This document shows positions 4,915 to 47,477 of a stretch of 64,000 bases of DNA, piece after piece. Positions within the stretch are counted from its first letter, which is position 1, and each line of letters begins with the position of its first letter. The stretch comes from Chloroflexota bacterium (GTDB taxonomy: Bacteria > Chloroflexota > Limnocylindria > Limnocylindrales > CSP1-4). The notes beneath the pieces were generated by a model, which was given only the letters and a program-made list of their open reading frames with translations, ran no database searches and was not told the origin of the DNA. The stretch is taken from positions 15,299-79,298 of the forward strand of contig JAKOQS010000082.1 in assembly GCA_029778235.1 (NCBI GenBank), in the 5' to 3' direction. The position numbers and the translations under genes are program-made.

Positions 4915-5159
4915 AGCCCCCCCCCCCGATCGCCCGCACCCGTCGGCGTCGGGGCAGGCTGACGGTCGAGGCGCGCGGGCGAGAGTCGATGCACGAGCGG
5001 GCCGGGCATCCGCGGCGACGACCGGCACTGGCGGGTCAGCTTGGCCCGCCATACCGTCGATGGGCACGAGCGGGAGGCTCAGACACGCGGCCCACACCCC
5101 GGCCGCCGGGACCGCGCCGAGCCACTGGCGAGACCGACCCGCACGAGAAGGGGTCGGCC

Positions 5160-30549: not shown

Positions 30550-30966
30550 GTGAGCAAGGAGCGCCGGCGGCGGCGCGGCGCCCCGCCGGCCGGGCGGGCG
30601 ATCGGCTGGTGGATCGCCGGGTTCGAGGAGCGCATCTACCCGCAGCGCGAGACCGTGGAGGAGCGCGTCCGCTGGGGGACCGAGACGCGGGCCGCGTCGG
30701 GCGAGGGATCGGGCGTCGTGGTGCGGTTCCCCGGAGGGTCCGCCGACCACGGCGACCCCGAGGCTGAGGGCGAAGCCGGGGGTCCGGCGGCCGCCGATGC
30801 GGACGGCGCCGAGGGCCCGGCCGCGGACGCGCACGGCGCCGAGGGCCCGGCCGCGGACGCGCACGGCGCCGAGGGCCCGGCCGCGGACGCGCACGGCGCC
30901 GAGGGCCCGGCCGCGGATCCATGCGAGCAGGGCGACATGGACGTGGACGGGGCGCCCGTGGCATAG
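30550..30966 (+). CDS. Hypothetical protein with a tandem decapeptide (DAHGAEGPAA) repeat
   Basis: 138 aa from a GTG start, with high GC3. Contains the 30-nt tandem repeat in frame. No recognisable family. Confidence 0.4.
   Translation: MSKERRRRRGAPPAGRAIGWWIAGFEERIYPQRETVEERVRWGTETRAASGEGSGVVVRFPGGSADHGDPEAEGEAGGPAAADADGAEGPAADAHGAEGPAADAHGAEGPAADAHGAEGPAADPCEQGDMDVDGAPVA
30796..30915. repeat. Four tandem copies of a 30-nt repeat (three perfect)
   Basis: gacgcgcacggcgccgagggcccggccgcg at 30826-30855, 30856-30885 and 30886-30915, all identical, preceded by a diverged copy at 30796-30825. Confidence 0.95.
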
Positions 30967-31035: not shown

Positions 31036-34064
<3,029 letters not shown>

Positions 34065-34080
<16 letters not shown>

Positions 34081-34706
34081 GCGACGGATCGCGGCGCGGC
34101 AGGCGCCTCGCCGACCTCGCGATCGTCGTCGCCTTCGCCGCGCTCGCCACGACCGGTGTCGCCGCCTACGCCACGTGGCGCATCTGGGCACAGGGCTACA
34201 CGGACGAGGCTCGCCCGGCGGACGCGATCGTCGTGCTCGGGGCGGCACAGTGGGACGGCGTCCCCTCACCGGTCTTCCGGAGCCGGATCGACCACGCCGT
34301 GGACCTCTGGAAGCAGGGTGTGGCGCCGTGGTTCGTGGTGACCGGCGGCTCCGCCGACGGCGACAGCTCCACCGAGGCCGCCGCAGCCCGCACCTACGCG
34401 ATCTCGCGGGGCGTGCCCCTCGAGGCGATCATGGGCGAGAACCGGGCGCGGAGCACCATCGGGTCGCTCGAGGCGATCAGGGACCTCTTCCACGAGCACG
34501 GGATCCGCAGCGCGGTCTTCGTCTCCGACCGCGGGCACATGCTGCGGGTGCTGCGCCTGGCGAGCGACCTGGGCATCGAGGCATACGGCTCCCCGGCAGC
34601 GGACAGTCCCAGCGACGCGACCGTCACGGCGCGCGCCCGCGCCACCGTGCACGAGCTCGGGGCGCTCGGCTGGTACTTCCTCTTCGGGCGCGAGAGCGGC
34701 GGCTGA
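34065..34706 (+). CDS. DUF218 (YdcF/ElyC/SanA-like) protein
   Basis: N-terminal TM segment, then AIVVLGAAQ...VVTGG...TEAAAARTYAISRGVP. Start uncertain: GTG 34065, ATG 34032 or CTG 34077, all overlapping the secA 3' end. Confidence 0.7.
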
Positions 34707-35054
34707 GGGCGGAGGCGCCGGCGCGGACGCCCGGTCCGGGCGGCCGGGCCAGCGGGTGGTGGACGGCGAGCCCCCGACGGAGCGGCGAGCATCTGCGTCA
34801 GCGCGGAGCCGCGGGGGTCGGGGGCCGCCGGCCGACAGGACCCGCCGGGCCGCCCTGACCGGACCGAGCCGCGCGGCGCGGCGCGGACCATTCAGACCAG
34901 TTTCCCTCTAGGCGAGTGGCCGACTCGCCCGTATACTTCGGGGCGACAGCCGACCGGCTGGGGGAACCCGGTCGGCGACCCCGAGACCATCGTCACCCGA
35001 CGCGTCCGCACCGCCCAGCCCTTTGGTGCGGCCGCGCAGCCGAGAGAGGGATAG

Positions 35055-35279
35055 GTGAAGCAGGTCGAGGATCCCCGGTTCATCGATCTCATCGCCTGCG
35101 AGCGAGATTGCCGGTCCTGCAGCTACGCCGCCGCGCTCGATTGCGACGGCAACTGCGGGGTCTGCGCCCACAACGGATACTGCCCCTGCGTGAACCCCGT
35201 CGTCGCCCGGAGCAAGTCGGCCATCCGGCTGATCGAGCTCCGGCCGATCCTCCTGCAGGACGCGCGAGCCCAGGCCTGA
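35055..35279 (+). CDS. Cysteine-rich 74-aa hypothetical protein (8 Cys, two CX3CX2C motifs plus CPC)
   Basis: GTG start preceded by GAGAGAGGGA. About 90% G/C at third codon positions. Its TGA (35277-35279) shares one nucleotide with the prfB ATG (35279-35281). Confidence 0.6.
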   Translation: MKQVEDPRFIDLIACERDCRSCSYAAALDCDGNCGVCAHNGYCPCVNPVVARSKSAIRLIELRPILLQDARAQA

Positions 35280-36401
35280 TGGACCTGGCCGCTCAGCGCG
35301 ACCTCGCGGAGAGGATCGCAGCGACCTCGGGGAGGCTTTGACCTCCCCACCAAGGAGAGCCACCTCGCGGAGCTGGACGCTCTGACGAGCGCACCGGGGT
35401 TCTGGGACGACCAGCGCGCGGCCCAGCGGATCCTCCGCCAGGCCGAGGGCCTGCGGTCGGAGATCTCGCTGTGGTCCGACCTGTCGGCGCGCGCCGCATC
35501 GCTGCTGGAACTCCGCGAGATGGCGGAGGACGCGTCCGACGCCGACCTGATCGCGGAGATCGACCGCGACGCACAGGCTCTCGCGGCGACGTTCGAGAAG
35601 GAGAGGTTCCAGCTCCTGCTCTCGGGCGAGTACGACGAGCGCAACGCGCTCCTCTCCATCTCGGCCGGCGCGGGCGGCACCGAGGCGACCGACTGGGCGG
35701 AGATGCTCCTGCGCATGTACCTGCGCTGGGCCGAGCGTCACCGCTTCTCCACGGAGATCCTGGACTCCACCGAGGGTGAGCAGACGGGCATCAAGAGCGC
35801 CACGATCGCGGTCGCCGGCCGGTACGCCTACGGCTATCTGAAGGCGGAGCGCGGCGTGCATCGCCTGGTGCGCATCAGCCCCTACGACGCGCAGAAGCGG
35901 CGTCAGACCACGTTCGCCCTCATCGAGGTGCTGCCCGAGGTCGAGGACGACGTGGAGATCGAGCTCGACTGGGACGTGATCCGGGTGGACACGTACCGCG
36001 CCACCGGCGCCGGCGGTCAGCACGTGAACAAGACCGATTCGGCGGTCCGGCTCACGCACCTGCCCACGGGGATCGTGGCCCAGAGCCAGAACGAGCGCTC
36101 CCAGATGCAGAACCGAGAGACAGCCACGAAGATCCTGAAGTCGCGGCTGCTGGAGAAGGCGCTCGAGGAGCGCGAGGCCGAGATCCGCAAGCTGAAAGGC
36201 GCGCACGTGGAGGCGGGCTGGGGGAACCAGATCCGCAGCTATGTCCTCCACCCGTACCAGATGGTCAAGGACCTCCGCACGAGCCACGAGACCAGCGACA
36301 CGACCGGGGTGCTCGACGGCGACCTGGACGACTTCATGCAGGCGGAGCTCGAGCGCGAGGCGACGGGCGCGCCGATGACCGAGGTGGGGGCGCCCGACTG
36401 A
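35279..36401 (+). CDS. prfB: Peptide chain release factor 2; requires a programmed +1 frameshift (35279..35338 joined to 35340..36401, 373 aa)
   Basis: Frame 0 gives [20 protein letters not shown] then TGA. The +1 frame continues [34 protein letters not shown]...[20 protein letters not shown] (GGQ) and SPF-type RF2 features. The track shows only the truncated 293-aa ORF 35520..36401. Confidence 0.92.
35329..35342 (+). other. RF2 autoregulatory +1 frameshift site
   Basis: GGGGAGG (internal SD-like) followed directly by CTT TGA C, the canonical CUU UGA C slippery/stop context. Confidence 0.9.

Positions 36402-45673: not shown

Positions 45674-47477
<1,804 letters not shown>

Follow-up and report, generated by a model that had tools for sequence, protein, structure and literature searches.

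A constrained eight-cysteine protein family encoded directly upstream of prfB in Limnocylindria

In the stretch of Chloroflexota DNA analyzed here (64,000 nt, hereafter the window), a cysteine-rich ORF of 74 codons ends exactly where prfB, the gene for release factor 2 (RF2), begins. This arrangement raises the question of whether the ORF is a gene and, if so, what a small protein with eight cysteines might do beside a release factor. The only accessory proteins known to us for class-I release factors in bacteria are RF3 and the adaptors ArfA and BrfA, which serve in ribosome rescue.

Coding selection on the eight-cysteine ORF

The ORF occupies positions 35055-35279 of the forward strand (GTG start, TGA stop), and both this extent and the 74-aa translation given in the original prediction match the window sequence exactly. 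No 5' extension is possible, as a TAG lies in frame at 35052-35054, immediately 5' of the GTG. The Shine-Dalgarno (SD)-like sequence predicted upstream is GAGAGAGGGA at 35042-35051 (forward strand); across loci, the mean anti-SD duplex energy at this site is -8.4 kcal/mol, whereas just 4.5% of random positions reach -8 kcal/mol. The GC content of codon positions 1, 2 and 3 is 0.65, 0.49 and 0.89, the last value agreeing with the ~90% first noted, while third-position GC in the two other frames is 0.64 and 0.51. The cysteines are spaced as originally described (C-x3-C-x2-C-x7-C-x3-C-x2-C-x5-C-x-C), with two C-x3-C-x2-C triads placed 15 residues apart and followed by a C-P-C pair within a core of ~36 residues. 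This core module (residues ~11-46) precedes a C-terminal segment conserved within the clade (residues 47-69), and its two triads look like an internal duplication of the form C-[ED]-x-[DN]-C-x-x-C. By residue count, the protein is approximately neutral overall with an acidic Cys core, unlike typical rRNA binders.

By itself, a 74-codon ORF says little in a window of 72% GC, where many long spurious ORFs occur in all six frames, and its inconsistent annotation by gene callers would also fit a chance ORF. It is conservation that takes this gene beyond chance. The window clade was represented by 80 species genomes plus the window (81 loci), and the reading frame, the eight cysteines (the conservation check proposed at the outset) and also the start position are the same at all 81 of them. 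The common start codon is GTG at 69 loci, TTG at 11 and ATG at one, with a GAGGGA-type SD upstream. Mean pairwise differences at codon positions 1, 2 and 3 are 0.062, 0.028 and 0.329, variation thus falling mostly at third positions, and pN/pS is ~0.10; in a more distant group described below (group B, 81 loci), pN/pS is 0.04 at a pS of 0.49. Each Cys codon was seen as both TGC and TGT among the 81 loci while the residue itself never changes. The low pN/pS values, the conserved start codon and SD, and eight cysteines invariant across hundreds of genomes together refute a chance origin, to which we give practically no credence, and the ORF is almost certainly a real protein-coding gene, as had been supposed.

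The small protein is also at least as conserved as the release factor encoded behind it in 300 of 300 random locus pairs from each of groups A (the window's group) and B. In the same locus pairs, identity is 89% for the small protein vs 67% for RF2 in group A, and 98.5% vs 82% in group B. Divergence of the ORF is barely correlated with that of RF2 (r = 0.07 and 0.28), probably because the ORF hardly varies. The Cys core and residues 47-69 are the best conserved, and the most variable part of the protein is the last 5-8 residues before the stop codon. As a separate observation, codons 46-54 (35190-35216; GTG AAC CCC GTC GTC GCC CGG AGC AAG) are nearly invariant at the nucleotide level across the 81 loci, with CCC, AAC, AGC and AAG each found at 81/81, whereas synonymous change is common in the rest of the ORF; this invariance may reflect codon bias or an overlapping RNA-level constraint.

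Members and distribution of the family

A protein search returned 430 relatives at 80-95% identity, all annotated as 'hypothetical'. Their annotated N-terminal extensions are unrelated among themselves, and the conserved part begins at the start codon used in the window. Gene callers usually lengthen the ORF to ~105 aa, with a non-conserved N-terminus drawn from inside the 5' untranslated region (5'UTR), or miss it (e.g., protein entries P0002-P0029 and others, and group B loci L088-L167); group B is represented by 391 metagenome stretches vs 32 protein clusters. When one genome per GTDB species was scanned, at least 304 species genomes were found to encode the ORF, and among the matches listed nearly all genomes bear the label Limnocylindria, Limnocylindrales or uncultured Chloroflexota. 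Searching 1.84 billion cluster representatives with a profile gave only 63 matches, which consist of the family groups, fragments and one spurious repeat protein.

Four groups can be distinguished. Group A, with the 74-aa protein of the window, belongs to Limnocylindria. Group B (65 aa, MKEWIVCEDNCLKCSYGATLDCDGDCPRCPRNTYCPCV...) is very common in soil metagenomes and has one member labelled Candidatus Limnocylindria; in group C, labelled Chloroflexota, the linker that separates the Cys core from the start is longer; and group D is a single contig of 52% GC. Neighboring proteins of groups B and D gave little taxonomic information. In the alignment, the proteins of groups B, C and D are 32-51% identical to the window protein, with group B reaching 56% across the 39-residue core. 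Fourteen positions are invariant in ten representatives of the four groups (C15, E16, C19, C22, Y24, L28, C30, D31, G32, C34, C37, C43, P44 and C45); in a larger alignment of 38 sequences, D31 and P44 fall to at least 90% while the eight cysteines stay invariant in all groups. His39 is not a family feature; groups B, C and D have Arg at this position. The C-terminus is a basic tail in group B (...FERPRKR) and in group D (...NGRNKRNIG). Tryptic peptides of the protein are QAEEASFVDLIACER and LIELRPILLQDLQAR, and for group B EWIVCEDNCLK.

Several unusual matches were set aside. Long 'RF2 fusion' matches (P0126, P0128, P0142, P0147, P0148, P0178 and locus L087) come from assemblies full of frameshifts, P0164 is a repeat protein that lacks Cys and matched spuriously, and the LuxR fusion P0163 lies on a 546-nt contig that is probably chimeric. 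At locus L086 (positions 445-456), the ORF stop TAG reads TTG, creating a clean in-frame fusion to the prfB leader that could, after the +1 shift, yield a Cys-rich-RF2 fusion, either as a real variant or through sequencing error; as a single metagenome contig, it was given no weight as a natural fusion. Three typical group A loci (L020, L042 and L043) lie on contigs labelled Anaerolinea sp., Candidatus Binatia and Patescibacteria, and since their sequences fall inside a Limnocylindrales subgroup, mis-binning is likely.

The prfB junction and the promoter

The gene 3' of the ORF is an RF2 gene with a programmed +1 frameshift. Its reconstructed protein matches TIGR00020 with 492 bits (cut-off 370; E-value 8.8e-148). 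A frame-0 leader of 20 codons (35279-35341) ends in CTT TGA and contains an internal SD-like GGGAGG (35330-35335) ahead of the canonical shift site CTT TGA C (35336-35342), after which the +1-frame body (35340-36401), the main part of RF2, provides the TIGR00020 match; all of these features are on the forward strand. CTTTGAC is kept in all related loci that contain this stretch of prfB, and prfB of all four groups carries it. In the window RF2, the stop-codon-recognition tripeptide 'SPF' reads SPY; in group A, SPY occurs at 29/74 loci and SPF at 42/74, and in group B SPF occurs at 64/65.

The ORF and prfB meet in a TGATG overlap (35277-35281, forward strand), in which the TGA (35277-35279) shares base 35279 with the prfB ATG (35279-35281), precisely as first reported. 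The tight join from which coupled translation had been proposed recurs throughout the window clade, where prfB starts between -1 and +2 nt from the ORF stop at 79 of 79 testable loci. In group A the junction takes the forms TGATG, TAGTG, TAGGTG, TGAGTG and similar, with offsets of -1, 0 or +2 nt. In group B the prfB leader follows the ORF at 79 of 80 testable loci and begins between -1 and +22 nt from the ORF stop at 78 of them, +6/+7 being the usual offset, with the one other locus at +78, whereas the TTG start of prfB overlaps the ORF end by 14 nt in group C and its ATG lies ~29 nt inside the ORF in group D. Taking all groups together, the distance from ORF stop to prfB start ranges from -29 to +22 nt at all loci but one, and the junctions occur in the same and in different reading frames.

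In the window clade, no SD above background was found before the prfB start, its anti-SD energy being -3.9 kcal/mol compared to -3.45 for random positions and -8.4 for the ORF start. Both features that define a translationally coupled pair, closeness of stop and start and a downstream start without an SD of its own, are therefore present at this junction, and translation of the two genes is very likely coupled. Initiation at prfB would then depend on ribosomes that have just terminated on the small ORF. The stop codon on which they terminate is variable, being TAG at 59 and TGA at 22 loci of the window clade, and TGA at 39, TAG at 38 and TAA at three loci of group B. An RF2-specific feedback acting through the ORF stop codon was considered and rejected for this reason, as TAG, TGA and TAA are all used, and no conserved feedback of this kind is added by the ORF.

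The same junction would be expected if the ORF acted purely in cis, loading or gating ribosomes at an SD-less prfB, with the peptide as a by-product or as a regulatory nascent chain (an arrest peptide or a sensor of cysteine supply). A prfB start without SD above background, always found at the ORF end, fits such a role; eight cysteines in 74 residues would make translation sensitive to the supply of Cys-tRNA, and ~30 conserved C-terminal residues would sit in the exit tunnel at termination. However, purifying selection extends over the whole 60-70 residues (pN/pS 0.10 and 0.04), and the non-Cys residues E16, Y24, L28, G32 and P44 are invariant across groups, a constraint for which a ribosome-loading ORF has no need. 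Arrest peptides of the SecM, MifM and ApdA type are conserved at a C-terminal arrest motif, whereas variability here is greatest in the last 5-8 residues, the opposite pattern, and there is no rationale connecting cysteine supply with RF2. A purely cis-acting ORF is thus an unlikely account of this gene.

Gene neighborhoods were compared across the groups. In the window, secA (31036-34080) and a DUF218 gene (34032-34706) precede the ORF, and prfB is followed by a GNAT acetyltransferase gene, ftsE and ftsX, with tmRNA further on. A 30-nt tandem repeat (4.3 copies, 97% matches; 30788-30917) lies ~120 nt upstream of the secA start. The upstream neighbors are DUF218 and secA in group A, lgt in group B, secA in group C and endonuclease V in group D. 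Adjacency has thus been kept through several rebuildings of the junction while other neighbors changed, which argues for selection on the pairing itself, and no copy of the ORF away from prfB was found among the ~160 loci examined. The standard frameshift-regulated prfB with secA nearby resembles the ordinary organization in many bacteria; it differs in an extra conserved gene that stands between promoter and prfB and supplies the sole ribosome-binding site.

These neighborhoods bear on another possibility, in which the protein is an unrelated housekeeping metalloprotein (a small ferredoxin-like carrier or a zinc buffer) that sits beside prfB for its expression level or because an overlap is not easily undone. 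Its acidic Cys core and internal pseudo-duplication are as in small ferredoxins, and the tie to RF2 rests on gene linkage. Simple inertia of an overlap does not sit well with junctions rebuilt repeatedly, from -29 to +22 nt and in the same or different frames, while adjacency persists, nor with an adjacency that holds across groups only 32-51% identical in which every other neighbor has changed; the lack of a copy elsewhere among the ~160 loci is a further point against it. We regard this explanation as improbable.

The pair also has its own conserved promoter (34904-34937, forward strand), composed of CCCTC, a -35 element TAGGCG (34909-34914), a 17-nt spacer and the -10 element TATACT (34932-34937). 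The hexamer singled out as -10-like in the original prediction is a genuine -10 element, conserved in 75 of 79 related loci, and a TTGGCG-like -35 is found at exactly 17-nt spacing in 76 of 78 (family consensus TTGGCG, window TAGGCG). The -10 element lies at a median of 98 nt 5' of the ORF start across loci. A generic sigma-70 scan did not pick up this promoter. Group B has a conserved and separate promoter, CCC[CT]C-TTCTCA-N17-TAAACT or TAAGAT. On these conserved elements, a single promoter is predicted to drive both the ORF and prfB. The CCCTC just 5' of the -35 is common to the promoters of group A (TCCCTC-TTGGCG) and group B (CCC[CT]C-TTCTCA) and, in combination with the -10, is not repeated elsewhere in the window; it may extend the -35 or serve as a regulator site.

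Two strong hairpins had also been noted in this region, and neither carries a conserved signal. The first (34911-34929) falls in the promoter spacer between -35 and -10, so it is not transcribed, and it is without conservation. The second (34949-34976) lies in the inferred 5'UTR of ~110 nt (34944-35054, forward strand; its start deduced from the -10) of the window and its closest relatives, with no structure common to the family. The window 5'UTR folds well (z = -2.75), whereas RNAalifold found no structure shared by 78 UTRs, and their mean z of +0.67 indicates no excess stability. Both hairpins are lineage-specific. In the window fold, UUUCCCUCU could pair with the SD, but this segment, being 5' of the -35, falls outside the transcript, and such pairing was discounted. 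An Rfam search of the whole window returned nothing near the ORF; its matches were a tmRNA gene (45674-46048, forward strand; RF00023, 99 bits) and a c-di-GMP-II-GAG riboswitch aptamer (5064-5148, forward strand; RF03169, 67.8 bits, gathering threshold 40), both elsewhere. The tmRNA gene indicates that trans-translation is present beside the ORF-prfB pair.

Comparison with known proteins and a possible role beside RF2

In the original prediction the protein was not recognized as a known family, with ferredoxin, WhiB and SCIFF set aside by name, and this agrees with our searches. No Pfam match was obtained with the window protein, nor at E<=10 with ten diverse members, and NCBIfam likewise gave no match at E<=10. 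At the level of sequence, this excludes detectable membership of the ferredoxin, WhiB, SCIFF, Csp/DUF326, ArfA, Trm112 and zinc-finger anti-sigma families. Sequence searches of the PDB with the family profile and two single sequences produced chance matches only (a structural protein, beta-galactosidase, Rpb3 and a trypsin inhibitor; E>=0.45). AlphaFold2 models made from alignments of 24 and 38 sequences had mean pLDDTs of 50 and 46 and showed no confident fold, and they thus give no structural support for a fold or a metal site. In the literature, we found no description of such a gene or of the ORF-prfB arrangement; the '26-aa peptide upstream of prfB' of a Synechocystis preprint is an ordinary frame-0 leader and not a homologue. 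Taken together, the family is new, narrowly distributed and extremely constrained, with an obligatory pairing with prfB as its defining genomic trait.

Judged by its invariant Cys pattern, the protein probably binds metal. Each triad, together with one Cys of the C-P-C pair, may form one metal site, giving two tetra-thiolate sites in total that could hold either two Zn(Cys)4 centers or two [4Fe-4S] clusters. Clostridial-type 2x[4Fe-4S] ferredoxins offer a likeness in their eight cysteines, short acidic segment, internal two-fold repeat and C-G-x-C and C-P motifs, but their arrangement is C-x2-C-x2-C-x3-C-P twice rather than C-x3-C-x2-C twice followed by C-P-C, and Fer4-type Pfam models did not match any of ten diverse members at E<=10. 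The Csp/DUF326 copper-storage proteins also place Cys at i, i+4 and i+7 on one helix face; the eight-Cys protein is much shorter, too short for their four-helix bundle, and has no HMM match at E<=10, and its second triad, rich in Gly, Asn and Pro, is unlikely to be a helix. WhiB-like proteins combine C-x(n)-C-x2-C-x5-C with a basic DNA-binding tail, whereas the Cys spacing here differs and no Pfam/NCBIfam match was found. SCIFF/ranthipeptides (TIGR03973) are ~45 aa with six Cys and a radical-SAM maturase; none of these features is found here, and no radical-SAM enzyme is encoded among the neighbors (secA, DUF218, prfB, GNAT and ftsEX).

A possible parallel from outside bacteria is Trm112, a small protein that binds zinc and activates Mtq2/HemK2, the methyltransferase that modifies the GGQ motif of release factor eRF1/aRF1. 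It is, like the protein proposed here, a small Cys-containing metal-binding protein tied to a class-I release factor, but it has one Cys4 site vs the eight cysteines here, and the Trm112 family model gave no match. To our knowledge, bacterial PrmC needs no partner.

Within bacteria, the closest functional parallel would be a ribosome-rescue factor. ArfA and BrfA recruit RF2 to non-stop ribosomes by a basic C-terminal tail in the mRNA channel, arfA is controlled via non-stop mRNA, and ArfA coexists with tmRNA in E. coli. An analogue of these factors, recruiting RF2 to ribosomes stalled without a stop codon, would be a special case of a partner acting in trans. The RF2-specific partners ArfA and BrfA are ~55-72 aa in length (PMC5378476, PMC8012679). 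The eight-Cys protein resembles these RF2-dependent alternative rescue factors of E. coli and B. subtilis in its small size and in the basic C-terminus of groups B and D, and its strict linkage to prfB would suit such a role; however, it shows no sequence relation to them, with no match to ArfA or any other family in Pfam/NCBIfam. We know of no Arf protein that has a Cys cluster or is encoded beside prfB. Moreover, the window clade has a C-terminal tail that lacks a strongly basic character and differs at its end between loci, the ORF is closed by a normal stop codon and has a constitutive-looking promoter in place of the non-stop control of arfA, and tmRNA is already present in the window. 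We therefore consider a rescue factor of this kind distinctly unlikely.

The reading we favor, at a probability of roughly 55%, is that of a small metalloprotein with two tetra-thiolate sites, translationally coupled with RF2 on one mRNA and acting with it. One dedicated promoter would transcribe the small ORF together with prfB, and ribosomes finishing the ORF would re-initiate at the overlapping or adjacent prfB start, as prfB in the window clade is without a ribosome-binding site of its own. Given re-initiation, each RF2 molecule would be preceded by the synthesis of one copy of the small protein, and RF2 output would then be trimmed by the usual +1 frameshift autoregulation. The small protein itself may act in trans with RF2, assisting or regulating termination or ribosome rescue. 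The ground for this partnership is gene linkage: a pairing with prfB kept in four divergent groups, from which, along with an evolution slower than that of RF2, we infer action in trans. As far as we know, RF2 of all other bacteria manages without a protein of this kind, which counts against a partnership. Redox- or metal-sensing, as raised in the original prediction, is a conjecture compatible with the data. The further proposal of an obligate stoichiometric subunit or regulator of RF2, in which a Zn or Fe-S center would tune termination or rescue to the metal or redox state, is tentative and rather unlikely.

Overall, the novelty lies in the protein family and the gene arrangement, with the mechanism inferred from them. 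Throughout Limnocylindria, an abundant and uncultured lineage of soil and freshwater, RF2 synthesis is firmly tied to a protein that surpasses RF2 in conservation, and this pairing points to an unrecognized component of translation termination or layer of its control. The case also illustrates that a gene under extreme constraint can be missing from curated family databases, and gene callers often give it a wrong start or overlook it. If an Fe-S or Zn center is bound, termination capacity would be linked to metal or redox status, and if the protein does serve as a subunit or regulator of RF2, it would represent an unrecorded class of release-factor accessory protein, limited to Limnocylindria and related Chloroflexota.
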